This document shows positions 1,861-45,764 of a stretch of DNA of 45,764 nt, piece after piece. The stretch covers positions 1 through 45,764 of the forward strand of contig CAZHGK010000005.1 in NCBI GenBank assembly GCA_964532095.1, written 5' to 3'. A program made the translations under genes and the position numbers. The notes below the pieces were generated by a model, which saw only the letters and a list, made by a program, of their open reading frames with translations, searched no databases and was not told where the DNA came from. The stretch comes from an uncultured Planctomycetales bacterium (GTDB taxonomy: Bacteria; Omnitrophota; Gorgyraeia; Zapsychrales; Fredricksoniimonadaceae). The first letter of the stretch is position 1. Each line of letters begins with the position of its first letter.

Positions 1861-2685
1861 TTAAGGACGTTTGGGAAATTTAGAAAAGTTGGGTTTACGT
1901 TTTTGTTGGAAAGCATTGCGACCTTCCTGACCTTCTTCAGTCATATAAAAAAGCATGGTGGCATTGCCCGCCAGCTCTTGTAAACCAGCTTGACCGTCGC
2001 AATCGGCATTTAACGCCGCCTTTAAACAGCGAATGGCGATCGGAGAATGTTGAAGGATTTCACGGCACCACTGAATAGTTTCCTGTTCTAATTTTTTATA
2101 TGGGACAACCGTATTCACTAAACCCATGTCTAAGGCTTGCTTGGCATTATACTGACGGCACAAAAACCAGATTTCCCGCGCTTTCTTTTGACCAACAATG
2201 CGCGCCATATAACTGGAACCATACCCACCATCGAAAGAACCTACCTTTGGCCCGGTCTGACCGAAAATCGCATTGTCAGCCGCCACAGTTAAATCACATA
2301 ACATCTGCAAGATCTGTCCACCACCGACGGCATATCCTGCCACCATGGCGATCACAGGTTTAGGGCAAGAGCGGATCTGACGTTGAAAATCCAAAACATT
2401 CAATCGATGATGACCGCTTTGATTGTCTTTATAACCAGCATCCCCCCTGATTTTTTGATCACCTCCAGAACAAAAGGCATCCTTGCCTTCGCCTGTCAGA
2501 ATAATGACACCGATCTTTTCATCGTCGCGGGCATTATCCAAGGCATGCATCATCTCTTTGACAGTCACAGGGGTGAAGGCATTGCGGCGGTGCGGCCGAT
2601 TAATGGTAATTTTAGCAATCCCATCCATTTTCTGATATTTAATCTCTTCGTAGGACCCAACAGATTTCCATTTGATCGTCGACAT
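1861..2685 (-). CDS. menB: 1,4-dihydroxy-2-naphthoyl-CoA synthase (crotonase fold)
   Basis: 274 aa. [24 protein letters not shown] and [11 protein letters not shown] are typical of MenB. Confidence 0.92.
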
Positions 2686-2686
2686 T

Positions 2687-2992
2687 TTACTTATACCTCG
2701 GGATTAAATGCACATGGGCGTGCATGACGATTTGGCCAGCAGCTTCGCCACAATTGGCCACAATATTAAACGCATCTGGTTTATGTTCTTTGTCTAATAA
2801 TTCTTTGGCTTGAGAAATCAAATCAAAAATGGCCTTACGTTCCTCGATGGTGGAATCAAAAATCGTTAGGTGATGACGTTTGGGAATAAACAACATATGC
2901 CCTTTACTGTGGGGCTTGATATCATAAACGGCATACGCCAAATTATTCTCCAAGACCTTGGGTAGATTTTTACAGAAGATGCAATCTGACAT
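2687..2992 (-). CDS. HIT-family (histidine triad) hydrolase
   Basis: C-terminal [10 protein letters not shown] histidine triad. The ORF track extends to 3052 (TTG), but MSDCIFCK from the ATG at 2990-2992 matches typical HIT N-termini. Confidence 0.8.
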
Positions 2993-3048
2993 AGCCGCTG
3001 GTACTTTCAATTTTCGATTTGGATTATAACGACGGATCGTGCAGGGCA

Positions 3049-3309
3049 TCAAACTTTTAAACTACGCTGCAGCTGTTCGACGTCTTTTTTTGCTTTCATC
3101 GGTGAGACATTAAAAATTTCCCCATACAGCTGTATGGCTAAATCTTTTTCACCTTCCATCAATAAATGTCGCACATCAAACATGGTTCCCTTACCCTTGA
3201 CGGGTAATTTACCACGACGACGAGCTTCATTAACAGACCAAGAATGATAAATATTTATGATGATCAAGATGCAAACTAAAACCACCAATGTGCCATAAAG
3301 GACCGTCAT
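3049..3309 (-). CDS. small membrane-anchored hypothetical protein
   Basis: 86 aa with one N-terminal TM helix (LYGTLVVLVCILIIINIY) and a charged helical tail. Translationally coupled with xseB (4-nt overlap). Confidence 0.5.
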   Translation of the reverse strand: MTVLYGTLVVLVCILIIINIYHSWSVNEARRRGKLPVKGKGTMFDVRHLLMEGEKDLAIQLYGEIFNVSPMKAKKDVEQLQRSLKV

Positions 3310-3497
3310 AAAAGCTTCTCCACCACCTGTTTGACTTCCAGTTCAGCTTTATCGATTTTAGCCTTGCACACCTTAATTAAATCAATGGCTTCTTTGACCT
3401 TGGCGGACAATTCATCCACATCAATATCGTCATTTTCGATTTGACCGATGATGGTATCTAAACGTTCAATTGCTTTTGTGTATTTGATATCTGGCAT
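3306..3497 (-). CDS. xseB: exodeoxyribonuclease VII small subunit
   Basis: 63-aa helical protein (LDTIIGQIENDDIDVDEL...) immediately downstream of xseA, overlapping it by 1 nt. Confidence 0.85.
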   Translation of the reverse strand: MPDIKYTKAIERLDTIIGQIENDDIDVDELSAKVKEAIDLIKVCKAKIDKAELEVKQVVEKLL

Positions 3498-4795
3498 TAA
3501 ACCTTACTCTTGATAATTCCGTCAGAAACCTGGGTATTTAAAACATCCCCTGATTTGGCATCTTTCTTAGTACGGATAATTTTCCCATCTGCCCGTCGAG
3601 TAATGCTAAAACCCCGCTTGAGAATGTTATGCGGATCTGCCATTTCGATAAGCTTCTGGTATGCCTGTATTTTAGTGCGGGAATTCGTCAGGCGCAAATG
3701 AATTGTTTTGTTTAAATCGAGCTGCGTTTGATCTAAACGCTGTCGGGATATTTTCAAAGCATTAACAGGCATTTGCCTGAGGATTTGGCCAATTTGCGAC
3801 AGCCGCTGGTGCTGTTGTTTAAACAGATCCACCGTCCCTGTTTGCAAGATAACGGCACAGCCCTTAAGATGCTCTTTTTGTTTGGCAATCACATCTTCTG
3901 CCAGGCCAATTAATGTTTTCTCTTTTTCTTGAAGATGGTCTAGAAATTCCTGCACGCGTCCAATTAGAAACTGCGCCACTGCCGTCGGCGTTTTAGCAAA
4001 GGTGTGGGCTGCCAAATCTGTAACCGTAGTATTGATCTCGTGGCCAATACCACTAATAACCGGCAACGGACAAAGAGCAATTGTTTGCGCAATAAGCGCA
4101 CTATCAAAGCAACTTAATTCTGCAATTGAGCCTCCCCCACGGGTAATAACAATCACATCCAACTCTTGATTTCCCTGCAAACGCTCAAGCGCATTTTTAA
4201 CAGACGCTTCCGCATTCTTCCCTTGCATAAGGGTATTAATGACATGGACAGAAAACCCAAACCCGCTACGTTTAATCTCGTCGATAAAATCGTGATAGGC
4301 AGCGGAATCGTAGGAGGTGATCAAACCAATATTTAAAGGCACCCGCGGCATGGATGTTTGTTTATTTTTATCCAAAAGGCCTTGTTGCTTTAGTTGCGCA
4401 ATCAGGCGTTGACGATCTTGGGCGATCTTGCCTAAGGTATAAATCGGATCAATGGCTGCAACAATGAGACGCACCTGGCCGTGGCCAGGATAAAAATCCA
4501 CACTGCATAAAAACTTCACTTCAATATCATCTTTAAGTCGGAAGGCATTTTCAGCTTTCGCTAAAGTTGCTTCAATCGACGGGCGGGTATTGGCAAAAAT
4601 CACCAGGCCAATGCGGGCCTTGATTTCGTGGGTAACAGGATCTTTTTCACACAGCTCGAAAAAAACATGCTTTTTATCTTTGCCGCGGTCATACCCCTGG
4701 ATTTCCCCACACACCCAAACGGGTTGTGGAAAACCACTGTTTAAAACATCGCGGATAAATACATTTAATTGGCTAACAGATAGGGTATTGTCCAT
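3497..4795 (-). CDS. xseA: exodeoxyribonuclease VII large subunit
   Basis: 432 aa. N-terminal OB-fold region LSVSQLNVFIRDVLNSGFPQPVWVCGEI, catalytic core ITRGGGSIAEL, C-terminal coiled coil. Confidence 0.9.
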   Translation of the reverse strand: MDNTLSVSQLNVFIRDVLNSGFPQPVWVCGEIQGYDRGKDKKHVFFELCEKDPVTHEIKARIGLVIFANTRPSIEATLAKAENAFRLKDDIEVKFLCSVDFYPGHGQVRLIVAAIDPIYTLGKIAQDRQRLIAQLKQQGLLDKNKQTSMPRVPLNIGLITSYDSAAYHDFIDEIKRSGFGFSVHVINTLMQGKNAEASVKNALERLQGNQELDVIVITRGGGSIAELSCFDSALIAQTIALCPLPVISGIGHEINTTVTDLAAHTFAKTPTAVAQFLIGRVQEFLDHLQEKEKTLIGLAEDVIAKQKEHLKGCAVILQTGTVDLFKQQHQRLSQIGQILRQMPVNALKISRQRLDQTQLDLNKTIHLRLTNSRTKIQAYQKLIEMADPHNILKRGFSITRRADGKIIRTKKDAKSGDVLNTQVSDGIIKSKV

Positions 4796-9255: not shown

Positions 9256-12200
9256 TTACCCTTTTTGTTGTTCGGTTGTACCCTCAGCTGCCATTGCCTT
9301 AAACATCTTCCAGCGTTCATTCACATCATGTTGGGCCAAATTCAGCAAACGCTTGGCCTCTTCAGGATTGCTTTTGACTAACATGGTGAAACGATTTTGC
9401 CTGTCGGCAAATTCCTTCAAGGGAATCTTAGGTTCTGTGGAATCCATTTGGAACGGATTTTTCCCCTCGAGAGTCAGCAAGGGATTATACCTAAACAATG
9501 GCCAGTACCCCGCATTTACTGCTGATTTCTGGTCTTGCAAACCATTAATCATGTCAATCCCATGGGCAATGCAATGGCTATACGCGATAATCAGCGACGG
9601 GCCATCATAACTTTCTGCTTCAAGGAAGGTGCGCAAGGTATGCTCATCTTTTGCCCCCATCGCCACTGAACCAACATACACATGGCCATAGGTCATGATC
9701 ATGCGCGCTAAGTCTTTCTTGCCAAGCCCCTTCCCTGCAGAGGCAAATTTGGCAACTGCCCCACGCGGCGTTGATTTGGAAGCTTGTCCTCCGGTATTGG
9801 AATACACTTCCGTATCCAAAACAAGGATATTCACATTACGGCCAGACGATAAGACATGGTCTAATCCTCCAAAACCAATATCATACGCCCAACCATCGCC
9901 CCCAATAATCCATACGCTTTTTTTGACTAGCATGTCTGCTATCGTCAGCAATTGCTGCGCATCAATGGATTTAATTTTCTTTAATTTTTCTTTTAATACA
10001 GCCACACGTTGGCGTTGCTCAAAAATATCTGCTTCTTCCAATTGCTTGGCATTGATAATTCCACTGACTAACTCATCCCCTAACTGCCCTGCCATTTTTA
10101 CGCACAATTCCATGGCATGTTCTTTTTGTTGATCAACGGCAAGGCGCATGCCAAGACCAAATTCCGCATTATCTTCAAACAAGGAATTTGCCCAGGCAGG
10201 ACCACGCCCTTCTTTATTTTTCGTGTATGGGGTCGTCGGTAAGTTACCCCCATAAATGGAAGAACATCCCGTAGCATTGGCAATAAGCATACGGTCACCA
10301 AACAGCTGGGTCGCTAATTTGATATACGGCGTTTCGCCACAACCCGTGCATGCTCCGGAAAACTCAAACAGCGGTTCTAAAACTTGTGACGAACGCACGG
10401 CATTCTTTTTGACCAGACGACGGTCTATTTCCGGAAGATCTAAGAAGAAATCCCAATTTTCTTTTTCCGTGTCCCGTATAGGACGCTGCTCAGCCATATT
10501 AATGGCTTTTAATTTTGTTTCTGCCTTATTCTTAACAGGACAAACATCCACACAGAGCCCACAGCCTGTACAATCTTCCGGGGCAACCTGCAGGGTATAT
10601 TTTAAATGCTTCCATTCGGTATCCCTGGCCTGTACAGATTTAAATGTCGACGGAGCACCTTCAGCCAATTTTGGCTCATACACTTTAAAGCGTATAACTG
10701 AATGCGGACAAACCATGGAACATTTGCCACACTGGATACAGATATCCTTGTCCCACACAGGAATTTCCTGGGCAATATTACGTTTTTCCCATTTGGCAGT
10801 TCCGACGGGATATGTACCATCTACCGGCATACAACTTACTGGAAGATGGTCCCCTTGATAGGAAAGCATCGGCGAAATCACCTTCTTGACAAAATCTGGC
10901 GCATCTTTGGCAACCATCTGATGGCGAGAGCGCGTGCTGGTAACCTTAGAAGGATATTTAATCTCATGCATATTCGCAATACTTTGGTCCACCGCATGGA
11001 AATTCATGGCCACAATATGCTCACCCTTTTTGCCATAGGATTTCTGGATAAAATCCTTAATCGACTTAATGGCCTCTTCTCTCGGAAGAACGCCAGAAAT
11101 TGCAAAGAAACAGGTTTGCATAATCGTATTGATACGCCCACCCATCTTTGATTCCCGCGCTACCTTATAGGCATCAATCACAAAGAATTTCAATTTCTTA
11201 TCGATAATTGTTTTTTGTACTTCTTTAGGCAAAGCATCCCAAACCTTATCTTGCTCAAATGGGGCATTGAGTAAAAACACCCCCCCTTCTTCAATTTTGT
11301 CTAATAAATCATATTTTTCAAGAAAATCGAATTGATGACATCCAACAAAGTTTGCGCTGGTGACTAAAAACGGCGAATGGATTGGCTTTGGGCCAAAACG
11401 AAGATGCGAAACTGTTTGGGAGCCGGATTTTTTGGAGTCATAGACAAAATACCCTTGCACAAACAGATTTGTATTTTCCCCAATGATCTTGATGGTATTC
11501 TTGTTTGCCCCCACAGTCCCGTCGGCACCAAGCCCATAAAATATCGCCTTTACCCCATCGGTCAGTTCAATGATATAATTCGGGTCATAATCCAGACTGG
11601 TATGGCTTACATCATCATTAATCCCAACCGTAAAATGATTTTTTGGTTTATCCTTCTTTAATTCATCAAGAACACTTTTGACCATGGCTGGGGTGAATTC
11701 TTTAGACGATAAACCATAACGTCCCCCAATTAATTTTGGCGTGCTATTAAAATGCTCCCCAGAAGTATTCTCAAACAAGGCCTGGGCAATATCCATATAC
11801 AGAGGTTCACCACTGGAACCAGGCTCCTTGGTCCGATCTAACACGGCAATGGCAGAAACTGTCCTTGGAAGCGCCTTGATAAAATGTTCTAAAGAAAATG
11901 GCCTATAAAGCCTTACCTTTAAAACCCCAACCTTTTCTCCCTCGCTGATAAGCTTATTAACCGTTTCCTGGGTTGTTGCTGCCCCTGAACCCATGATCAC
12001 AATGACCCGCTCTGCAAACGGATGTCCATAATAATCAAACAAATGGTATTGCCGGCCTGTTAGTTGTGCAAACTTATCCATTGTCTTTTGCACAATAGCC
12101 GGACATTTCTCGTAATAAGGATTAACTGTTTCTCGTGCCTGAAAATACACATCAGGGTTTTGGGTCACACCACGGATGACTGGATCATCAGGTGTCAATC

Positions 12201-25895: not shown

Positions 25896-25914
25896 CGGAG
25901 AGGGAGAGATTCGA
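25896..25914. repeat. attL-type direct repeat (copy of the tRNA-Ser 3' end)
   Basis: CGGAGAGGGAGAGATTCGA is identical to 30955-30973. The flanking bases differ on both sides. Confidence 0.85.
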
Positions 25915-26039
25915 TTAAGGCGTTTTTCGAACTATTTAAAAAGAAACGAACTATGATGTAACTGCTTTATTGCTAACATCTTGACCATTCTTTCGTTTCC
26001 ATCTCTTTCCCCGCCGTTACTCCCCTTTTTGTTCGACGA

Positions 26040-26060
26040 TGGGCACCTTTTGGGCACCAT
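26040..26060 (+). repeat. arm-type repeat pair (TGGGCAC x2, 11-bp spacing), left arm
   Basis: TGGGCACCTTTTGGGCACCAT matches 30862-30882 at 20 of 21 positions in the same orientation. It lies 126 bp inside the left att repeat. Confidence 0.55.
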
Positions 26061-26467
26061 TAACCTTCTATCCAAACATCATGAATCCATGTTGCTAGAT
26101 CGGACCATTTCTCATTTGAAAATCCATTATGCGACCAATAAACAACTTCACCGTTCTTATTTAAACAATAATAATCACCATTGTCCTGACAAATTGGGAG
26201 TAAATCTTTAGCAATGCCTGCATCCCAACCTTCTTTTGCGACATTAATTAAATATAAACGATTATCTCTTATATCTAAATTGGCTGGTTCTAGCGTTCCA
26301 TATACCACGTCACTTGCATATAGCAGAAAATGACGATATTGATTAGGAAAAGTTATTCCTAAATCTTTCTCTGCCCTTACAACATCTTGTTCCTTTGGTA
26401 AAGTAAGTGGATTAGGAACATCTTCATTTAACTCTTTTAATTGGACTATTATTTCTTTTATATCCAT
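26060..26467 (-). CDS. SMI1/KNR4 (SUKH-1) family protein, immunity-protein-like
   Basis: 135 aa. LGITFPNQYRHFLLYAS, and the ...GDYYCLNKNGEVVYWSH pattern typical of SUKH domains. Confidence 0.7.
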   Translation of the reverse strand: MDIKEIIVQLKELNEDVPNPLTLPKEQDVVRAEKDLGITFPNQYRHFLLYASDVVYGTLEPANLDIRDNRLYLINVAKEGWDAGIAKDLLPICQDNGDYYCLNKNGEVVYWSHNGFSNEKWSDLATWIHDVWIEG

Positions 26468-26565
26468 GAAAAACCCCATGCCCGTCAATGCTACTAAGAT
26501 TTAAAAAATAAAAAATCTGCTTTGTTGTAAGTATAACACAAACAACACCGGGATAAATTCAAACC

Positions 26566-26769
26566 TCAAATATTTGCTGGCTTCATGCGCTTTCTCGCCT
26601 GTAACCATCTTTCCAAATCAGATTGCCTAAAACGGATCACTCCAGCGGAACCTCTGCTTTTATAGACCTTAAAATATGGAATATCCCCGCAATGAACCCA
26701 ATTATAAATGGTCTTAGGGCTCATTTGTAACAGTTCCCCCACTTCACGAATCTTTAAAAGTTTTTCCAT
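26566..26769 (-). CDS. excisionase / AlpA-type helix-turn-helix DNA-binding protein
   Basis: 67 aa. LKIREVGELLQMSPKTIYNWVHCGDIPYFKV...IRFRQSDLERWL. ATG at 26769 with a GGAGG SD sequence. Confidence 0.75.
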   Translation of the reverse strand: MEKLLKIREVGELLQMSPKTIYNWVHCGDIPYFKVYKSRGSAGVIRFRQSDLERWLQARKRMKPANI

Positions 26770-26931
26770 AAATCCTCCAAATCTTAGACATAACATAAAT
26801 ACAATCTATATTAAGATTCCAGAAGGATTTAATTTCTATATGTGGGGGAGAAATTAAAGGGGGATTCCTTGATACCTGCTAAATAAAATTTAGCACAAAC
26901 AAAAAATCTGTCAACAATTGCCTTGCAACCA

Positions 26932-26964
26932 ATAATTAGTGCAACGATCTGTTGCACTAATTAT
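26932..26964 (-). terminator. perfect 14-bp-stem hairpin at the end of the three-gene operon
   Basis: ATAATTAGTGCAAC-GATCT-GTTGCACTAATTAT overlaps the stop of the 150-aa ORF. A moderately T-rich tract follows on the minus strand. Confidence 0.5.
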
Positions 26965-27413
26965 CCAACAGCTTTTAAAATAACTTTTTCGTAATGTATT
27001 TTCTCAAATCTAAACGGACCAACTTGCTTAAATGAAGCCATATCAGTCATCTGAGGATCGTAGTCATTCTCATATCCAAACTCGGACCATTCAATTATTC
27101 CAGAAGACTCTGAAATTTTAATGGTAATAGCTCCACAGCCAATGTCTCCACACTCAGAGCAAACATATAACATGCATCGGCCATTTTCTAAATCTGGTGC
27201 TTGTTTTAGCTTGAAGACTTCGGCACTTTCCCGATTCAAAGCCAAGTTTTCTTCCTGTGAAAATCGTCCTACCATATCAAACTTAGAGGCTCCAAGCAAT
27301 TCATACAGTGATTGCCCATTCACAATGAAATCAATTGTATGACGTTCGTGTTTAACTGTCGAATCACCAGCACGATGAATAACACGTAAATCTAATTTAT
27401 CAGTTTTTTCCAT
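26961..27413 (-). CDS. hypothetical protein with CSECGDIGCG motif
   Basis: 150 aa with no enzymatic motif I recognise. Last gene of a tightly packed three-gene unit. Confidence 0.6.
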   Translation of the reverse strand: MEKTDKLDLRVIHRAGDSTVKHERHTIDFIVNGQSLYELLGASKFDMVGRFSQEENLALNRESAEVFKLKQAPDLENGRCMLYVCSECGDIGCGAITIKISESSGIIEWSEFGYENDYDPQMTDMASFKQVGPFRFEKIHYEKVILKAVG

Positions 27414-27445
27414 ATCCCATCCTCATTTAAACTTCTTCATAAATC

Positions 27446-27718
27446 TTAATCGTGATCATTTCTTTTAAATTTTACTTTAAGCAGGTAGCAATCTTTTAGT
27501 TTTTCCACATCCAAAACGGTGATTTTCCCACTCATATCTGGGTCTTCAACGAAACCATGTTTAGTTTGACACTCAAAATAAAAAGATGCTGATCCACTAC
27601 AAGAAGAACTGGAATGAAAATCGATGTAACCAATATCGATACTTCGAAGATTAAGAATTATATCTGAGCTCTTTCCATTTCTACCTTTCAAATATTTTGT
27701 TTCCATATTCTTCTCCAA
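27446..27718 (-). CDS. hypothetical small protein
   Basis: 90 aa. Separated by 5 nt from the upstream gene and 32 nt from the downstream gene. Confidence 0.5.
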   Translation of the reverse strand: MEKNMETKYLKGRNGKSSDIILNLRSIDIGYIDFHSSSSCSGSASFYFECQTKHGFVEDPDMSGKITVLDVEKLKDCYLLKVKFKRNDHD

Positions 27719-27723
27719 TATTC

Positions 27724-28698
27724 TTAAATCTTTAAATTTTCTTTTGTTTCTTTACTATATTTCTCTTTTACTTTCTTGAGGAAAAATATAATGTTGCCAT
27801 TTTCTTCTTTTTTCTCAAAATTTATTATTATTTGTGAACTATAAACACTTGGGTCAATTTTAGATTCCCCCTCGTATCTAGCTGTTAAAATTATTTGTAA
27901 CGCCACCGCTGCACTATTATTCTTTAACTTAGAAATATTAATTTCGGGAACAAAATTTGTTACAATGTTTCCCATTCCATCAGAGGATAATTGCCCCACT
28001 CCTTCGGGATTCTCAATCAATACTCCTGGTTGAATAGTGTCAATCCTTCCAGCCGAATCAATCCAAAAACTATCATATTTTAATTCAACGTTTTGAGCCG
28101 GTATTTTTCCCTTATTTATTAAATTAAAACTTAAATACATTTTCTCTTCATTGGAGTAAACAAAATAAAACATCCCGTTCTGTATTTTTATATTACCACC
28201 TGGTTTTAACCAAAAAACTAAATAAGGTCGGTATTCCATCTGAAGCGCTGCGATCTTATGTTCAGTGTTCTGTTTTTCGGTATTTGCTGATCTCTCTGCG
28301 CTGTTAAAGCCTAACCATGTAATAAATGCTATAAAAATAGTAGCTATAGCCATAAAAATATTGGTTAATTGTGGAATAAATCTGTCCGGATTCCATCTAA
28401 ACCAGATACTTGTAAAAAATGAAACAAAAGCAATTATCAAAAATAAATACTTAAATGAATGCTTTAAAACAATTACATTTGAGAAGCACATACAAAACAT
28501 ACAAATAAATACAAGCATACTTATAATTAAAAAAGGCTTGCTGCGGATGATTCTTTTGATTTTACTTAAATCTTGATTCATATTAAAAATATGTTTTGAA
28601 CAGAATTCATATCCATTTTTAGCATTATTCTTACAAGGATTGCCTTTTTGAGTCAAAGCTTTACATTTTGTATTATCGTTTGTAGTAGGAGTGTTCAT
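27724..28698 (-). CDS. hypothetical membrane protein with N-terminal Cys/His zinc-ribbon-like motif
   Basis: 324 aa. CKALTQKGNPCKNNAKNGYEFCSKH (C-x9-C-x11-C-x2-H), three TM helices, then a roughly 170-aa beta-rich C-terminal domain. Confidence 0.65.
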   Translation of the reverse strand: MNTPTTNDNTKCKALTQKGNPCKNNAKNGYEFCSKHIFNMNQDLSKIKRIIRSKPFLIISMLVFICMFCMCFSNVIVLKHSFKYLFLIIAFVSFFTSIWFRWNPDRFIPQLTNIFMAIATIFIAFITWLGFNSAERSANTEKQNTEHKIAALQMEYRPYLVFWLKPGGNIKIQNGMFYFVYSNEEKMYLSFNLINKGKIPAQNVELKYDSFWIDSAGRIDTIQPGVLIENPEGVGQLSSDGMGNIVTNFVPEINISKLKNNSAAVALQIILTARYEGESKIDPSVYSSQIIINFEKKEENGNIIFFLKKVKEKYSKETKENLKI

Positions 28699-28794
28699 AT
28701 TAAAAAGTTATTCAACAAACAAGGATGAGTCATATAAATTTAAAACACCTTGCCAACCTATCAGTTGGATTATATACTTTAAATAGCTTTTAAG

Positions 28795-28890
28795 GATCGG
28801 GGTGTCTCCCGGTCGAAATTTACCAAAGGTTCCGCCTCGATGACAAGGGCCCAAGGGGCCCTCTCGTAAGAGTAGTCGAGGCGGTCGCAT
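28795..28890. ncRNA. GC-rich multi-hairpin element immediately 3' of the DUF3800 CDS (candidate structured RNA)
   Basis: About 59% GC by hand count, against about 27% in the preceding 90 nt. It contains a 7-bp hairpin at 28795-28814 and a 9-bp enclosing helix (28832-28840 with 28876-28884) around GGGCCC-AAG-GGGCCC (28847-28861) and a small CTCT/AGAG hairpin. Two non-Watson-Crick positions are G-U on the plus strand but C-A on the minus strand. Confidence 0.4.
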
Positions 28891-28892
28891 TT

Positions 28893-29564
28893 TTAGTAAT
28901 ATAACGTCGTTCCTGCCCGAAATATATTAAATTCACTCTTAATAACCTTCTTTATTCCTTCGTAAGACCTTAAATCGTTAATTTCCCATTTGCGATAAAT
29001 CGCCCAATTGCAGTAATCAACAATTTGTAAATCAAAATTTGATTTTGAAGCATGATGGAATATTTCATAAACTACCCCAGGTGGAAGCATTTCGGCTAGG
29101 AATATCTTTATAGCCTTTTCTATTGCCTTCTTTTTACGCTGAACAGGAATGTTATCCGTAAAAATAATCACTTTTGCAAATTGATTTAGATCGTACCCTT
29201 TTATTACATAACTCAATAAATACTTTAACATTTCTGGGTAAAACCTTGTTTCATCTCTTAAGGCTGGTCCTGTCTTACGTTTTTCAACAATTAAGCTATC
29301 AATACGGGTCTGATCAATATATCTATGGATTATATCAAATACCCCGTTTCTTACTGCCTGGGTATCCTCTGCTGCATGAAAGGCCTCAATCTCAACGCCT
29401 AATTCAATAAGATCGTATTTTAATTCACATAAATGCTTATATGCCTCGAATGGTCGTTCTTTTGAAAGGCTCGTTAAAGTAAAATATTTAGTCCCTCCAT
29501 TCGAAAAGTCTAAATTACCGCCCTCATCTAAGAAAATATAAAGAATTTTTTTCTTCTCTAACAT
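28893..29564 (-). CDS. DUF3800 domain protein
   Basis: 223 aa. N-terminal ILYIFLDEGGN (DUF3800 hhhDESG-type motif), FHAAED, and C-terminal SKSNFDLQIVDY (LQxxD). The acidic residues are spaced compatibly with an RNase H-like fold, which is my inference. Confidence 0.75.
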   Translation of the reverse strand: MLEKKKILYIFLDEGGNLDFSNGGTKYFTLTSLSKERPFEAYKHLCELKYDLIELGVEIEAFHAAEDTQAVRNGVFDIIHRYIDQTRIDSLIVEKRKTGPALRDETRFYPEMLKYLLSYVIKGYDLNQFAKVIIFTDNIPVQRKKKAIEKAIKIFLAEMLPPGVVYEIFHHASKSNFDLQIVDYCNWAIYRKWEINDLRSYEGIKKVIKSEFNIFRAGTTLYY

Positions 29565-29633
29565 TAATATTCCCTCAAACTTAAATTTCGATAATTATAG
29601 TATATTCCTCACCGTTTAATACAACTTTTCTTC

Positions 29634-29716
29634 TGCGCGCGATCGGCCCAGACCCCTTCCGCTCCGTCAAAACCTATGGTTGAGTGGGAGGGGTCTGGGG
29701 TGATGCTTCGCGCGCA
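29634..29716. ncRNA. 83-nt GC-rich long hairpin between the integrase and DUF3800 genes (candidate structured RNA)
   Basis: About 65% GC. A 9-bp basal helix (29634-29642 with 29708-29716) and an 18-bp upper helix (29647-29664 with 29682-29699). The upper helix is continuous on the plus strand with two G-U pairs, which become A-C mismatches on the minus strand. Confidence 0.4.
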
Positions 29717-29761
29717 TTCCGTCAAATTCCTTTGTGAATCATTGACTTATGAATCAGTAAA

Positions 29762-29809
29762 TCTACATTTTTTCTACATTTTGTAGAACTTTTGTAGACT
29801 TTTTGTAGA
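29762..29809. repeat. five phased TCTACA/TGTAGA hexamers (iteron/operator-like array)
   Basis: TCTACA at 29762 and 29773; TGTAGA at 29782, 29793 and 29804. Spacing is mostly 11 bp, each hexamer has a T4-5 flank, and the central pair forms the palindrome TCTACATTTTGTAGA. Confidence 0.55.
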
Positions 29810-29810
29810 T

Positions 29811-30836
29811 TTAAAAATTTAGCTTCTCAACCGCCTTATCTACATGCTCATCAGCCAAGTGAGAATAAACCATGGTGGTTTCGATGTCTGCATGGCCTAA
29901 TAGCTTCTTGACCGTAGGCAAGTCCACTCCGCTCATAATCAAATGACTTGCAAATGTATGCCTGAGTGTATGAATCTTGGTTACATCCGAAAAACCATGT
30001 TCTGTACTTATACGCATTAATTGTTTACGCAAATAGTTAGGATCAACCTTCTCTCCCTTGCGATGAAAGACATAGGGACAAGTATCAGCTTTTTGCTTCT
30101 GATTTACCAGCACTTCCATTAAACCATTATGAATTGGAATTTCACGTTCGGACGTTTTTGGACTCCAATCATCCTTATAACGAATTTTGATTTTCTTGCG
30201 CTGAAAATCTACATCGCTCCAAGTGAGATTTTCCAATTCACTTTTGCGCATACCGGTATGAAGAAAGGTATAGAAAATTGGATAAAGCCACTCACCGCAA
30301 TTTTCTAAAAGAGCCTTGGACTCTTCTTTGCTTAAGAACCGTGGCTTTTTGTTAGCTTCTTCTTTGAGGTCTTTAATCCCTTTAACAGGATTCTCTTTAA
30401 GATAACCCCAGCGCATACCGAGATAAAACATTGCTTTTAAACAAATCAATTCAATATTGATTGTTTTGTTAGCAGCGCCTTTTTTCTTGCGATAAGCCTG
30501 ATAATCTTCAAAAAATTTGGAATTTAGTTGGGATGTCTTTTTGATGAATGGAGATTTGTTTAGGAATTCTTTGAAATTATCGAGGATGGCTGAATAACGT
30601 CTTTGTGAGGATGGTGCATGGTGGGTTTTGCTGTAGACTAGGTATTCTTCAAACAATTGGTTTAATTCAATGTCTTTTTCAACAAAACCAATTTCTTGTC
30701 GCTCTAGCTTTACTTCAATGTCCTTTAATGCTAATTCCGCTGTTTTCTTTGATTTGCCTATGGCCTTACGGACTCTTTGGCCGTTGACACGATAATCAAT
30801 AAAATACCGACCAGCTTTAAATCTGAGACTTGCCAT
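29811..30836 (-). CDS. int: tyrosine recombinase / phage-type integrase
   Basis: 341 aa. HTGMRKSEL (Arg I), HTLRHTFAS (H-x-x-R) and GHADIETTMVYSH (His/Tyr). Adjacent to the tRNA-Ser 3' end. Confidence 0.92.
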   Translation of the reverse strand: MASLRFKAGRYFIDYRVNGQRVRKAIGKSKKTAELALKDIEVKLERQEIGFVEKDIELNQLFEEYLVYSKTHHAPSSQRRYSAILDNFKEFLNKSPFIKKTSQLNSKFFEDYQAYRKKKGAANKTINIELICLKAMFYLGMRWGYLKENPVKGIKDLKEEANKKPRFLSKEESKALLENCGEWLYPIFYTFLHTGMRKSELENLTWSDVDFQRKKIKIRYKDDWSPKTSEREIPIHNGLMEVLVNQKQKADTCPYVFHRKGEKVDPNYLRKQLMRISTEHGFSDVTKIHTLRHTFASHLIMSGVDLPTVKKLLGHADIETTMVYSHLADEHVDKAVEKLNF

Positions 30837-30861
30837 AAAAAACCCCCTTGTTGATGATTGT

Positions 30862-30882
30862 TGGGCACTTTTTGGGCACCAT
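30862..30882 (+). repeat. arm-type repeat pair (TGGGCAC x2), right arm
   Basis: TGGGCACTTTTTGGGCACCAT lies between the int start and the att core, 73 bp inside the right repeat. Confidence 0.55.
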
Positions 30883-30951
30883 CATCTTTAAGGGGGGTCA
30901 AGATGTTTGTAACTAATAATAAAATAATCAGTTACAAAATGCAATTAAAAC

Positions 30952-31041
30952 TGGCGGAGAGGGAGAGATTCGAACTCTCGATACCCTTTCAGGTACACAC
31001 GCTCTCCAGGCGTGCGCCTTCAACCACTCGGCCACCTCTCC
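30952..31041 (-). tRNA. tRNA-Ser (anticodon GGA), CCA encoded
   Basis: Hand-folded as GGAGAGG acceptor stem, anticodon stem CACGC/GCGTG with loop CTGGAGA, a long variable arm, and T-arm GAGAG-TTCGAATC-CTCTC. 90 nt. Confidence 0.9.
30955..30973. repeat. attR-type direct repeat inside the tRNA-Ser 3' end
   Basis: Identical 19-mer to 25896-25914. Confidence 0.85.
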
Positions 31042-31079
31042 ATCCAAAGAAAAATACTATATCATATACATCTACTGCA

Positions 31080-31139
31080 GGAGAGGTGTTGTGCCGATTC
31101 CATAATATCCGCCTACTAGTAAAGTAGGCCCACCTCTCC
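31080..31139 (-). other. 60-nt nested hairpin whose 5' end duplicates the first 10 nt of tRNA-Ser
   Basis: The minus strand reads GGAGAGGTGG...CACCTCTCC, with a 9-bp outer stem and an inner 7-bp stem (GCCTACT/AGTAGGC). It lies 39 nt upstream of the tRNA. Confidence 0.3.
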
Positions 31140-31159
31140 AAAATTTGGAACAAATTTTG

Positions 31160-31238
31160 GATCCTGAGTCTAACTTAAGACGAAGGATCTAAATTATCAA
31201 AATCACAGATCCTGAGTCTAACTTAAGACGAAGGATCT
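31160..31238. repeat. two identical 31-bp hairpin-forming repeats (31160-31190, 31208-31238)
   Basis: GATCCTGAGTCTAACTTAAGACGAAGGATCT occurs twice with a 48-bp period. Each copy folds as GATCCT/AGGATC plus GTCT/AGAC. The pair sits just 3' of the ABC-F stop. Confidence 0.7.
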
Positions 31239-31245
31239 TAAAACC

Positions 31246-32889
31246 TTACTTCAAACTTTCGTTCACACTGTAAAGCGCATGACGTTGCGTTTTAATAAGC
31301 TCATCTTCTAAATATTCATCATACTTCATCCCCATCCGGTCGATAAACCCATTGGGGGTTAGTTCAATGATCCGGTTAGCCACAGTCTGCACCAACTCAT
31401 GGTCATGGGATGAAAATAAAATCGTGCCAGGAAAACTTTCCATGCCTTTATTTAATGCGGTAATAGCTTCCAAATCCAAATGGTTCGTCGGCTCATCGAG
31501 GACAACCACATTGGCACCTGTGAGCATCATCTTCGAAAGCATGCAACGCACCTTTTCACCACCGGATAGCACACTCACACTTTTTAAACTTTCCTCGCCG
31601 GTAAATAACATACGGCCCAAAAACCCGCGCACAAAATTTTCATCTGTTTCTTTAGAATATTGGCGTAGCCAATCAATGAGATTTAAATCTACATTAAAAT
31701 ATTTATTATTGTCCTTAGGGAAATATGTTTGTGTCGTCGATACCCCCCATTTGAAACTTCCTGAATCCGCGGCAAGTTCCCCCATTAAAATTTGAAACAA
31801 GGTGGTTTTTGCCAAATCATTAGGCCCCACAAAAGCTATCTTATCGCCCTTATTAGCATGCAGGGAGAAATTTTTAAACATGGGCTGACCATCAATCATT
31901 TTAGTCAAATTTTCCACATGCAAAACATCATTACCAGCTTCTCGCTCCGGCTTGAAATTGATAAAAGGATATTTCCGTGACGAAGGTTTAATATCGTCGA
32001 TGGTCAACTTTTCTAGCATTTTCTTGCGGGCCGTTGCCTGCTTGGCCTTGGAAGCATTGGCAGAGAAACGGGCGATGAAATCCTGTAATTCTTTGCGACG
32101 ATCTTCAGTCTTCTTATTGGCATCTGACCGTTGGCGCAAAGCCAATTGGCTGGCCTCTAACCAGAAACTATAATTACCGGTAAATGTTTGAATCTTACCA
32201 TAATCGATATCACAAATATAGGTGCACACCTTATCTAAAAAATGGCGGTCGTGGGAAACCACAATGGCTGTATTCGGGAAATTAATTAGAAATTCTTCCA
32301 ACCACAAACAGGTATCTACGTCGAGGTGGTTGGTAGGCTCATCAAGGATGAGAATATCAGGATTACCAAAAAGAGCTTGAGCTAAAAGTACACGCACCTT
32401 TTGTGAACCTTCCAATTGCTTCATCAACAAACGATGATTTTCTTCAGGGATGCCCAAATCGCTTAATAATTTTCCAGCTTCACTTTCTGCATCCCAACCA
32501 TTCATTTCCCCAAATCTGGCTTCTAATTCTGACGCGCGCAAACCATCTGCATCGGAGAAATCAGCTTTTGCATACAGCGCGTCTTTCTCCTGGATGACCT
32601 GGTAAAGTTCCTTATGGCCCATGATGACGGTGGTGATAACATCATATTCGTCATAGGCAAACTGGTCTTGGCGCAACATGGACAGGCGTTTACCGCCCAT
32701 GATAGATACATTTCCCGTCGTGGTATCAATATCTCCAGAGAGGATTTTCAAAAATGTAGATTTACCGGAACCATTAGCCCCGATAATGCCGTAGCAGTTG
32801 CCAGGGTTAAAGGTGATATTAACCCCGTCAAATAAGATACGTTTGCCGAATTGTAAGGAAACATTGTTTGCTGAAATCATAGCCGCCAA
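31246..32889 (-). CDS. ybiT: ABC-F family ATPase, YbiT-like
   Basis: Two nucleotide-binding domains and no TM segments. GANGSGKST, LLDEPTNHLD twice, LSGGEKVR, and the linker FIARFSANASKAKQATARKK. The track start at 32889 is TTG; an ATG lies at 32878-32880. Confidence 0.88.
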   Translation of the reverse strand: MAAMISANNVSLQFGKRILFDGVNITFNPGNCYGIIGANGSGKSTFLKILSGDIDTTTGNVSIMGGKRLSMLRQDQFAYDEYDVITTVIMGHKELYQVIQEKDALYAKADFSDADGLRASELEARFGEMNGWDAESEAGKLLSDLGIPEENHRLLMKQLEGSQKVRVLLAQALFGNPDILILDEPTNHLDVDTCLWLEEFLINFPNTAIVVSHDRHFLDKVCTYICDIDYGKIQTFTGNYSFWLEASQLALRQRSDANKKTEDRRKELQDFIARFSANASKAKQATARKKMLEKLTIDDIKPSSRKYPFINFKPEREAGNDVLHVENLTKMIDGQPMFKNFSLHANKGDKIAFVGPNDLAKTTLFQILMGELAADSGSFKWGVSTTQTYFPKDNNKYFNVDLNLIDWLRQYSKETDENFVRGFLGRMLFTGEESLKSVSVLSGGEKVRCMLSKMMLTGANVVVLDEPTNHLDLEAITALNKGMESFPGTILFSSHDHELVQTVANRIIELTPNGFIDRMGMKYDEYLEDELIKTQRHALYSVNESLK

Positions 32890-43847: not shown

Positions 43848-45632
43848 TCATTGAATACCAGCTGTCGACGGAAAACTATTATCAAATGTGCGTGAGGCCA
43901 AAAATGTAATATCATCTTTGACCGTCACATAGAGAACTTCTGAAGGAGTTGTTTGGCCCGACAAAACACATTGCCAGCCATTTTGGCGCAAGGTGGTCAT
44001 CCCCTTGGACATGGACATTTGTTTAATTGCTTCCGTACTTGGCTGCCTGGTTAAGGCATTGCGGATCGAATCTGATAATTCTAAAATTTCATAAATAGCG
44101 GTACGCCCCAAATATCCCGTCTTATTGCAGGCATCACAGCCTGCGCCCTTATAAATTTTAAAATCTTCATTCGGTAAGGACAATGATCTAACAATTTCTT
44201 CCCTTACCCCAGGAGCCACATCATGGTCCTCTGTTTTGCAATTTGGACAAATCAAACGGATCAAACGCTGGGCCACAAATGCCTGGACGCTGGAGGCAAT
44301 CAAATATGGCTCCACACCCATATCAATGAGACGATTAACACCACTGGCAGCATCATTGGTGTGCAGCGTCGATAAAACCAAATGGCCTGTCAGAGCAGTA
44401 CGCACGGCAATTTCTGCGGTATCTAAATCACGCACTTCCCCCACCATCACAATATCCGGATCATGGCGCAAGATGCTGCGCAACCCCTGGGCAAAACCAA
44501 AATTCAATTTCGGGTTCACATGAATTTGGGTTATCCCTTCCATCTCATATTCAATTGGGTCTTCAATGGTAATGATCTTGCGGTCATCCAAATTAAGTTC
44601 ATGCAAACATGCATATAAGGTCGTTGTTTTTCCACTACCCGTCGGACCAGTCACAAAAATAATCCCATGGGGCTTTTGGATCAATTCACGAAGACGCAAG
44701 GCATTGTTGGTACTCAGCCCTAAACTTTCCAGATTGGTACGCGCGGTCTTGGTAGGCAAGATACGGATCACCATACTTTCCCCTCGAGGAGTTGGTATGG
44801 TTGAAACACGCAAATCCAAATCCTGATCATTGGTGCGCACCACCGCACTGCCGTCTTGTGGCAGACGCTTTTCCGTGATCGTCAAATTTGACATAATCTT
44901 AATACGGGATAAAATCGCCGGCAAAAAGTGTTTGGCCTCTGGAGGAAGATTGGCATCCACTAAATTCCCGTCGATGCGATAACGCAAACGCACCTTTTCC
45001 CGGTAAGGCTCCAGATGGATATCGGTGGCCCGCTTTTGATAGGCTTCTAAAATAATTTCATTAACTAGCTTCGCAACAGACGGGTCCTGGCTGATTTTTT
45101 CAATATCCTCAACCCAGGAATCCCCAGCCATCTCAACCTTGGGCCGCTGTGGGTCCTTGGTTAGAATCTTATCAATCGTGTCCGACGCCAAACCATAATA
45201 TTTCTTTAATGCCTCGGTAATATCACTTTTTAAGGCCAATACTTCTTTAGGTTCAACACCCAAATGTACACGAATATCATCTTCAACCCGCACATCCAAG
45301 GGGCTGGAAATTGCAATGGTTAAAACATTTCCCTCTAGAGCAACAGGCATGAATTTATAAAAAGAAGCAAATTTCACAGGAACACGGGCAATCACCGCTT
45401 CTGGAATAGTGGTATTTCTTAAATCAATGATGGGAAGTTTAAGCTCTGAGGCTAACGCATCAACAATCTGACGGTCGGTAACAATATTGTGGCGAATCAA
45501 ATAGCTATTGAGATTTTTGTGCTCCGCTTTTGCTGCCAGAACATATTTTTCCGCAGCTTCCGTCGTGACTAAACCGGCTTTGATGAGAATATCGATGAGG
45601 ATTTTGTTGGCGACGGGTTTGTACATACACAC
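43848..45632 (-). CDS. gspE: type II secretion ATPase GspE/PilB family
   Basis: N-terminal T2SSE_N-type domain, Walker A GPTGSGKTTT, Walker B/Asp box, His box, and a tetracysteine motif (CPNC...CDAC). Confidence 0.92.
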   Translation of the reverse strand: MCMYKPVANKILIDILIKAGLVTTEAAEKYVLAAKAEHKNLNSYLIRHNIVTDRQIVDALASELKLPIIDLRNTTIPEAVIARVPVKFASFYKFMPVALEGNVLTIAISSPLDVRVEDDIRVHLGVEPKEVLALKSDITEALKKYYGLASDTIDKILTKDPQRPKVEMAGDSWVEDIEKISQDPSVAKLVNEIILEAYQKRATDIHLEPYREKVRLRYRIDGNLVDANLPPEAKHFLPAILSRIKIMSNLTITEKRLPQDGSAVVRTNDQDLDLRVSTIPTPRGESMVIRILPTKTARTNLESLGLSTNNALRLRELIQKPHGIIFVTGPTGSGKTTTLYACLHELNLDDRKIITIEDPIEYEMEGITQIHVNPKLNFGFAQGLRSILRHDPDIVMVGEVRDLDTAEIAVRTALTGHLVLSTLHTNDAASGVNRLIDMGVEPYLIASSVQAFVAQRLIRLICPNCKTEDHDVAPGVREEIVRSLSLPNEDFKIYKGAGCDACNKTGYLGRTAIYEILELSDSIRNALTRQPSTEAIKQMSMSKGMTTLRQNGWQCVLSGQTTPSEVLYVTVKDDITFLASRTFDNSFPSTAGIQ

Positions 45633-45683: not shown

Positions 45684-45764
45684 CATGTAGAAATCTTGCG
45701 CTTCCATGTCAAGGGGCTGGAAATTGCAATGGTTAAAACATTTCCCTCTAGAGCAACAGGCATG
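45684..45764 (-). CDS. 3' end of a partial ORF that duplicates an internal gspE N-domain segment
   Basis: The minus-strand reading frame gives ...MPVALEGNVLTIAISSPLTWKRKIST-stop (TGA at 45684-45686). The first 55 nt are identical to 45297-45351. Confidence 0.3.

Follow-up and report, generated by a model that had tools for sequence, protein, structure and literature searches.

A conserved folded element that probably belongs to the integrase module of tRNA-Ser islets in Omnitrophota

A folded element next to an integrase gene

Element B is a folded element of 83 nucleotides (nt) located on the plus strand of contig CAZHGK010000005.1 (29634..29716), which comes from an assembly placed in the Omnitrophota and was analysed at its full length of 45,764 nt, referred to here as the window. 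The element lies inside an integrative islet at a tRNA-Ser gene, in the 246-nt spacer that extends from the stop codon of a tyrosine integrase gene (int) to the start codon of a gene encoding a DUF3800 protein. Element B is very probably a conserved and structure-constrained element of the integrase module and not a partner of DUF3800, a standard terminator or a dispersed repeat. Comparison of sequences and predicted folds shows it to be homologous across five islets, and it probably forms a core component of the integrase module shared by a group of ~4-5 kb islets that occur at tRNA-Ser genes, probably in Omnitrophota.

Fold and stability of the window copy

The window copy is composed of two helices, P1 and P2, and lacks the third helix of the family, P3, as judged from the folds and from the covariance model described below. 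P1 is an outer clamp of 9 base pairs (bp) in which T29634-A29642 (TGCGCGCGA, 29634..29642) pairs with T29708-A29716 (TCGCGCGCA, 29708..29716). Enclosed by this clamp is the long helix P2, whose 5' arm (29647..29664, alignment columns 18-37 with column 31 unpaired) forms 18 consecutive plus-strand pairs with its 3' arm (29682..29699), the latter being the most conserved stretch of the whole family (GGTTGAG.GGGAG.GGT.T.G). RNAfold adds pairs between 29643-45 and 29701-03 as well as a 4-bp tip, AACC/GGTT (29671-74 with 29678-81). The tip belongs to a conserved AACC-TAT-GGTT motif (29671..29681) which is present in the window and in two related loci, L292 and L209, and is deleted in a third, L206. 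Two pairs of P2 are plus-strand wobbles, T29658.G29688 and G29661.T29685, which turn into A.C mismatches on the minus strand, and the extra RNAfold pairs include a third plus-strand wobble, G29645.T29701. The sequence, the two-tier pairing (9 bp + 18 bp) and both G-U pairs in P2 are as described in an earlier note on this DNA. The same note called the hairpin continuous only on the plus strand, which is correct for the plus strand itself, but the minus strand is still able to form a very strong hairpin.

The plus-strand fold has a predicted energy of -60.0 kcal/mol (z = -9.0, with 0 of 200 shuffled sequences folding as well), compared with -48.2 kcal/mol (z = -6.3) for the minus strand, and DNA parameters rank the two strands in the same order (-34.8 for plus versus -27.3 for minus). 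When all 90-nt windows on both strands of the 45.7-kb sequence are compared (mean -16.4, standard deviation 5.5), Element B is the most stable local fold at -60.8, and the runner-up reaches -39.4. It is found once in the window. The element is GC-rich (0.63-0.65) inside an AT-rich islet, and the trinucleotide TTC borders the element at both ends; a 3-bp duplication of these TTC flanks was considered and dropped as too weak or not common to the relatives.

No T-run follows Element B on either strand and a terminator scan of 28500-31300 calls nothing there, in agreement with the earlier view that it is not a standard intrinsic terminator. A TATAAT box is indeed present on the minus strand (29599-29594) between Element B and the DUF3800 start codon (29564), and the suggestion that the hairpin is located outside the likely 5' untranslated region of DUF3800 is supported. 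On its other side a linker (29717..29758, plus strand), which is not conserved in sequence and measures 12-21 nt in the relatives, connects Element B to an AT-rich hairpin. The 9-mer TCCGTCAAA in the P2 bulge (29663-29671) is seen again at 29718-29726, two bases past the end of the hairpin. As a functional feature this repeat was rejected; it has no equivalent in L292 or L209, is confined to the window copy and is probably due to chance. The element is not coding: a small protein starting from an ATG in the loop was likewise discarded, since the frame has 36 codons in the window and the same frame only 7 in L292 and L209.

Homologues in related islets

The closest relatives of the window integrase stem mostly from Omnitrophota assemblies, and those that carry Element B downstream share 74-90% identity with it. 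Three loci contain a complete homologue: in L206 (3110-3216; integrase 86% identical) the element comes after a DUF4160/HTH gene pair, in L292 (2194-2305, identical to L293; integrase 74% identical) it follows directly after int, and in L209 (9086-9189; integrase 74% identical) it follows a Gp49/HTH_37 pair. A fourth copy, in L212 (ENA ERZ4200879 NODE_37856, 2877-3048), displays the same AT-rich repeats and then the first hairpin arm before the contig ends in the loop, which is possibly an assembly break at the palindrome. Within the arm that is preserved, L212 has a T-to-A change at the position corresponding to 29685. The L212 integrase belongs to the same 90% cluster, with 84% nucleotide identity over 1.2 kb, and the tRNA gene and arm repeats beyond int are replaced by a DDE transposase gene (DDE_Tnp_IS240, 198-1208).

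The islets of L206, L292 and L209 adjoin tRNA-Ser genes, and the layout of attachment (att) and arm-type repeats seen in the window is also found in L206, L209, L211 and L292, the arm repeats of L292 being located at 1047 and 5018. An AT-rich hairpin is positioned between int, or int together with a toxin-antitoxin pair, and the element in L206, L292, L209 and L212. All five copies of Element B share one syntenic slot, after int and the AT-rich hairpin and before variable cargo, and the element is single-copy in every related locus. The related islet L208 is located on a contig that ends too early to be scored for the element. What follows Element B differs in each islet: DUF3800 in the window, PDC-S01 and PDC-S15 in L292, a ShlB-type transporter in L209 and an unknown partial gene in L206. 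The two L292 genes (2490-4517) are defence candidates identified by PADLOC (E 7e-149 for PDC-S01), and the islets appear to ferry such candidates. Also in L209, a region upstream of a dCache_1 gene (11175-11272) matches the c-di-GMP-I-GGC riboswitch (RF03167) at 55.3 bits, compared with a gathering score of 59.

Searches of viral contigs with DNA patterns and with the integrase returned no homologue, and the integrase relatives found there are at most 31% identical; six 17-mer matches in viral contigs were put down to chance. Nothing was found in plasmid and phage collections by blastn. A pattern for finding further members of the family is GTTCMAGACCMCTG-N(20-50)-GGTYTKGAAC.

Conservation of the fold

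Read antisense to int, which corresponds to the plus strand of the window, the family element is ~85-112 nt long and consists of three helices. P1 is a clamp of 9-19 bp whose sequence is different in each islet (TGCGCGCGA, CCCTATTTGCTTGGGGTTT, GTTTGCGCAAGGGGTT and TTGCAACGGTT) and which stays paired despite this drift, 5 of its 10 pairs having changed on both sides. P2 is largely conserved and comprises 13 bp, a mismatch, a further 6 bp, a bulge of 4-6 nt and the AACC/GGTT tip with a UAU or GUAU loop; three copies have G.G at the mismatch, where the window, with T29658, has U.G. The third helix, P3, forms a small hairpin with an A-rich joiner behind it, and the loss of P3 is what gives the window copy the appearance of a plain two-tier hairpin. 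The conserved P2 sequence, the G.G/U.G mismatch and the tip look like a platform for recognition by a protein.

A covariance model, R1, was built from L206, L292 and L209 only, leaving out the window sequence. R1 finds the window copy at 29629-29719(+) with 49.7 bits (E 2.7e-11), whereas the minus strand of the window scores 23.2 bits; the truncated L212 copy scores 22.5 bits. As controls, unrelated hairpins of other genomes were selected for having the 20-nt P2 core in common with the family; R1 gives them no more than 32 bits, and they display no strand preference. The alignment of the four complete sequences has 93% of its cells paired, and both sides have changed in 12 of the 35 pairs. None of 500 shuffles reaches the observed values, and slid partners give 38-52% pairing with 1-3 such pairs. 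RNAalifold, which predicts the shared fold independently, also arrives at P1 and P2 and reports 11 compensatory pairs. Covariation analysis in related islets, which the earlier note had proposed as a check, is thus positive, and the alignment shows the predicted fold of Element B to be kept through compensatory substitutions.

Strand preference and a possible role in islet regulation

Whether RNA or DNA parameters are used, the strand antisense to int gives the more stable fold in each of the four complete copies. The RNA energies for this strand and for the other are -60.0/-48.2, -75.5/-67.9, -70.5/-64.5 and -65.8/-61.6, and the DNA energies of the same four copies are -34.8/-27.3, -45.2/-40.9, -44.2/-39.5 and -41.9/-38.9. 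The plus-strand bias first noticed in the window holds and recurs in all three other complete copies. When the copies are considered in their own folds, wobbles stand against A.C mismatches on the antisense strand at 4 to 0 (three in the window and one in L292), and the model-fitted alignment contains four G.U cells and one A.C cell. The two non-standard P1 cells of L292 in this alignment, one G.U and one A.C, are explained by a misalignment of P1, a helix that is fully paired when the L292 sequence is folded by itself. A preference of Element B for the plus strand, antisense to int, is moderately supported by these predictions.

In the direction of the genes, every copy of the element is preceded by an AT-rich hairpin with A-runs and T-runs. 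In the window this hairpin (29759..29812) abuts the int stop codon, upstream of Element B in gene direction, and is built from repeats, TCTACA twice and TGTAGA three times at 11-nt spacing, with A-runs and T-runs flanking them. Either strand of it can fold (z -3.6 and -4.6), and it has the look of a terminator that works in both directions. Beyond the element, again in gene direction, there is a probable promoter for the cargo, of which the window shows a -10 box only and L292 a complete promoter-like site. Since a terminator-like hairpin lies before the element and a probable cargo promoter after it, transcription of the element in the gene sense would occur only by read-through. This in turn favours either an RNA of the antisense strand that ends at the AT-rich hairpin or a role at the level of DNA.

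It is tentatively proposed, with a little less than an even chance of being correct, that Element B is a plus-strand small non-coding RNA (ncRNA) serving the regulation or maintenance of the islet. The element would act as a folded single strand that is antisense to int and cargo, and would form the body of an ncRNA of roughly 170 nt which starts in the spacer before P1, is convergent with int and ends at the AT-rich hairpin, a terminator that it would share with int. The P2 helix would serve as the platform recognised by a protein. The role can be guessed to concern the islet itself rather than the cargo, for example in the control of int or of excision. The module as a whole is laid out as tRNA-Ser, arm-type repeats, int, with or without a toxin-antitoxin pair, AT-rich hairpin, Element B and variable cargo that includes defence candidates. 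A guide-like match between the C/T-rich arm of P2 and the att core of the tRNA was rejected; the shared TCCCTCTC is not present in every copy, and in L209, where the tRNA is a different one, it does not change accordingly.

Several points weigh against this proposal or against the placement of Element B in the integrase module. On the antisense strand none of the copies has a recognisable sigma-70-like promoter ahead of the element, and the flank is poorly conserved. In two of four loci it is the gene-sense strand on which the AT-rich hairpin folds somewhat better. The strand count of 4 to 0 corresponds to a one-sided p of ~0.06 if the cases are independent, and the copies are related and two of them have no wobbles. 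The covariation is drawn from four complete, related sequences in an alignment that was fitted to the model. L211, which is a related islet, has no copy within 5 kb of int. Finally, single-stranded RNA and single-stranded DNA (ssDNA) motifs are indistinguishable by sequence analysis (PMC5737381).

Alternative explanations

Element B may instead work as DNA, in the form of folded ssDNA or an extruded cruciform, and provide a site for DNA transactions of the islet after its excision, such as priming or replication, transfer, or secondary recombination and cargo exchange in which the tyrosine recombinase reads the folded strand. This is the main alternative and is considered possible, if rather doubtful. 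The same fold and the same strand bias are obtained with DNA parameters, a promoter for an RNA was not found, and the element sits exactly at the border between the conserved integrase module and the variable cargo. Near-perfect helices of >30 bp are moreover typical of DNA palindromes more than of bacterial small RNAs. Integron attC and the attP(+) of CTX phage are folded single-strand sites of tyrosine recombinases, and Element B resembles them in its strand bias, in a structure that is kept while the sequence drifts, in its conserved mismatch and in its location between a tyrosine recombinase and exchangeable cargo. Structured ssDNA motifs are also found by the same methods as RNA motifs (PMC5737381).

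Against a DNA-level site stands the fact that the islet already has classical att sites, consisting of a 19-bp core repeat in the tRNA and arm-type repeats at both ends, and no replication or relaxase gene was found among the annotated genes of the 5-kb islet. The RYYYAAC/GTTRRRY boxes that characterise attC are absent: the window copy ends in TGCGCGCGA/TCGCGCGCA and P2 of the relatives ends in GTTCAAG/CTTGAAC. Element B is further set apart from attC by occurring once per islet instead of once per cassette, there being no cassette array, and by an islet integrase with phage-type SAM-like and Int_N (arm-binding N-terminal) domains and att sites in a tRNA gene. No mechanism is known by which the particular strand of Element B would be exposed.

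It is unlikely that Element B is a passive barrier. As such it would be a GC-rich hairpin that backs the AT-rich terminator and shields potentially toxic cargo from transcription of int or the toxin-antitoxin pair, and int from antisense transcripts. Alternatively, in a loose parallel to lambda sib/tI, it could stabilise int transcripts that read through or be the hairpin at which RNase III processes them. Every copy of the element has transcription units on both sides, and either strand folds strongly. The cargo includes nuclease-like and defence-candidate genes, and in common with intrinsic terminators and lambda sib/tI the element is a strong hairpin downstream of an integrase gene. A passive barrier would explain this position but not the conserved P2 sequence, the mismatch and the tip. 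It needs stability and not sequence, yet it is these parts that are conserved while P1 drifts. The U-tract of intrinsic terminators is absent on both strands in the window and in all the relatives, a terminator-like hairpin already precedes the element, and close relatives of the integrase have a promoter directly after int without such a hairpin. Lambda sib/tI is transcribed as part of the int message and cut by RNase III, and in the prophage att comes between it and int. In the islets, by contrast, a separate terminator-like hairpin intervenes, the element folds better antisense to int and is located on the side of int that faces away from att, and a topological switch between prophage and excised form is impossible.

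A more speculative possibility, and a distinctly improbable one, is that Element B serves as a folded-strand cofactor or substrate of the tyrosine-recombinase machinery of the islet, either as an RNA that tunes integration and excision or as an ssDNA site for swapping cargo.

It is very improbable that Element B is a selfish palindromic repeat that landed in the spacer by chance, in the manner of repetitive extragenic palindromes (REP/REPIN) or miniature inverted-repeat transposable elements (MITE). Like these it is short, intergenic, almost purely palindromic with little beyond two inverted arms, and GC-rich (0.63-0.65) in an AT-rich islet, and the TTC at both of its ends could be a 3-bp duplication, although a flank match of 3 bp is weak evidence. 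Certain genomes of Acetobacteraceae and Magnetococcus contain multi-copy hairpin repeats that have the 10-bp core CCCAGACCCC/GGGGTCTGGG in common with it. These multi-copy hairpins are however not homologous to Element B, as local alignment reaches <= 19 of 83 and <= 32 bits with no strand preference. Unlike REP/REPIN and MITE sequences, Element B is not dispersed in the DNA covered by the analysis; it is single-copy in the 45.7 kb of the window and in each related locus, its five copies always occupy the same syntenic slot and it diverges along with its islet. Its compensatory changes argue for selection on the fold.

The scan of genome contigs with the pattern CCCAGACCCCN{20,50}GGGGTCTGGG, which is loose for GC-rich genomes, matched at least 119 stretches. 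These were set aside as unrelated REP-like hairpins, and the source genome and the homologues of Element B are not among the matches listed. Multi-copy, multi-tier palindromes around the core CCCCAGACCCC...GGGGTCTGGGG are seen in L091-L166 and others, for example in a metagenome-assembled genome of Acetobacteraceae (OZ255625.1), and the same core palindromes are present in L116, L123 and L125, which are Magnetococcus, and in L178. One Acetobacteraceae chromosome has at least 20 copies among the matches listed. The CCCCAGACCCC...GGGGTCTGGGG palindromes look like REPIN-type repeat families that are not homologous to Element B.

The DUF3800 gene and Element A

Eleven structured motifs that do not resemble one another, and whose function is unknown, are associated with DUF3800 genes, on either side of the gene and on either strand (PMC5737381), and the DUF3800 protein has an RNase H-like fold (PMC7736814, PMC10910872). 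On these grounds it is reasonable to ask whether Element B, which adjoins the DUF3800 gene on the opposite strand in an arrangement known from such motifs (PMC5737381) and seen for RF02964 in the locus L012, could be a partner RNA of the protein and a further member of these unlike motifs, but this idea is close to refuted. The comparison set consists of 80 metagenome loci with relatives of the window protein at 54-82% identity. None of the 80 loci has Element B beside the gene according to blastn and nhmmer, none of 81 loci (L006-L086) has it according to R1, and the regions upstream of the 80 genes have no similarity to one another. Contigs of four further close DUF3800 relatives (L086, L213/L214 and L215) also lack it. 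The closest relative, P0002, is 86% identical, and a member of its cluster (L213/L214) has an upstream spacer of 360 nt without Element B. Strong hairpins upstream of some GC-rich DUF3800 loci were inspected and found to be unrelated.

Searching the Rfam DUF3800 models against Element B gave no match at the gathering score and none at E <= 10 over a stretch of 351 nt, whereas the positive control RF02964 was recovered in L012 at 74.4 bits. Three of the four other islets with Element B have other cargo, and in the fourth, L212, the contig ends inside the element. The DUF3800 subfamily also has a conserved partner of its own already, Element A. Together these comparisons show that Element B is unrelated to DUF3800. 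The frame implied by the earlier note, that of an element belonging to a DUF3800 islet, does not stand: conservation next to DUF3800 homologues, whose absence the note had named as refuting, was not found, and the conserved neighbour is the tyrosine integrase.

Element A is located directly past the DUF3800 stop codon, in the window at about 28828-28888 with core helices at 28832-28884, and is ~60 nt in size; this region is presumably the one that had already been given that name. Of the 80 DUF3800 loci, 72 retain Element A right behind the stop codon, and the source names of the protein relatives span several phyla. It forms a three-way junction with compensatory changes in 12 of 19 pairs among 70 distinct sequences. 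On the gene-sense strand there are 13 C.A cells versus 1 U.G cell, so that the folded strand of Element A is probably the one antisense to DUF3800. Rfam 15 has no family matching it even at E <= 10, and it may be an uncatalogued DUF3800-associated motif, possibly a member of the eleven described by Weinberg that is absent from Rfam.

L012 (1-2000) contains tandem DUF3800 genes, the first of which is followed by Element A and the second by the opposite-strand Rfam motif DUF3800-V (RF02964, 74.4 bits). Two different motifs hence hold the same position relative to paralogous DUF3800 genes. The DUF3800 protein of the window itself (28893-29564) gives a weak PADLOC match to a retron type VII effector model, DUF3800_VII (E 7e-9).

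Relation to other structured motifs

Rfam contains no match to the window copy at E <= 10 or to three relatives at E <= 1, apart from chance microRNA-type hairpins, and searches of the whole window (gathering scores) and of the islet (E <= 5) recover only tRNAs and further chance hairpins of the microRNA type. Element B is thus absent from Rfam 15 and represents a new family of structured motifs associated with mobile elements. No literature on hairpins or integrase elements in Omnitrophota was found.

In its mode of action Element B comes closest to the other orphan structured motifs that mobile elements carry. Of these int-alpA and STAXI, both in Rfam, are structured motifs of unknown function located near the integrase genes of mobile elements, with a possible role as ssDNA. 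They are leads only; Element B has no Rfam match to them and differs from them in phylum and in fold. The DUF3800-I to -XI motifs (Weinberg et al. 2017; in Rfam for example RF02964, RF02968 and RF02969) are, like Element B, orphan motifs that were found by covariation. They share with it an intergenic location in mobile or defence regions, occurrence on either strand and an unsettled nature as RNA or ssDNA. In contrast to Element B, whose conserved neighbour is a tyrosine integrase, they belong with DUF3800, and their Rfam models do not match it.

The islet and its surroundings

The window contains a complete integrative islet of ~5.06 kb at tRNA-Ser(GGA) (25896-30973) with a 19-bp att repeat at both ends. 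The tRNA-Ser(GGA) gene itself is encoded on the minus strand (30952-31041). The attL core, TCGAATCTCTCCCTCTCCG (30955..30973), lies within the 3' part of the tRNA gene and the second copy of TCGAATCTCTCCCTCTCCG constitutes the attR core (25896..25914). An arm-type repeat, GTGCCCAAAA-GTGCCCA, is found near both islet ends (30862-30879 and 26040-26057), and between tRNA-Ser and int there is an inverted repeat, TTGTAAC...GTTACAA. The GC content of the islet is 0.32-0.38 compared with ~0.43 outside.

All islet genes are encoded on the minus strand, in the order int, DUF3800, three genes without a Pfam match, HTH_17 and SUKH_5. The tyrosine integrase (29811..30836, minus strand) has the Pfam domains Phage_integrase, Phage_int_SAM_5 and Int_N. 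The DUF3800 gene (28893..29564, minus strand; PF12686) is adjacent cargo and not part of Element B. The HTH_17 protein (26566-26796) has a mad1-like PADLOC match and may be an excisionase-like core gene rather than cargo.

Two further repeats are located outside the islet. Between the end of an ABC-F gene and tRNA-Ser, the region 31160-31241 consists of a 34-nt unit in two tandem copies that are 97% identical at a spacing of 48 nt, and each unit forms a GATCCT...AGGATC hairpin. An exact 55-nt repeat is present at 45297-45351 and 45710-45764, 413 nt apart, with the second copy reaching the last base of the contig; it could be an internal repeat of a gene or an assembly artefact.

Implications

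The lead offered by this hairpin is redirected from the DUF3800 gene to the integration module of the islet. Element B is a structured element, supported by covariation, from a poorly studied candidate phylum in which ncRNAs and the control of mobile elements are almost unknown. It marks the border between the conserved integrase module and exchangeable cargo and can be used as a landmark for finding such islets. Element A in turn is directly relevant to the question of how DUF3800 proteins use the structured nucleic acids that accompany them. Were Element B to act together with the recombinase, this would be of mechanistic interest. Structure-specific recombination, or recombination that a non-coding nucleic acid assists, is so far represented by integron attC and CTX attP sites and by guide RNAs in other families of recombinases, and a folded-strand cofactor or substrate, if this were true of Element B, would extend it to ordinary islets that target tRNA genes.

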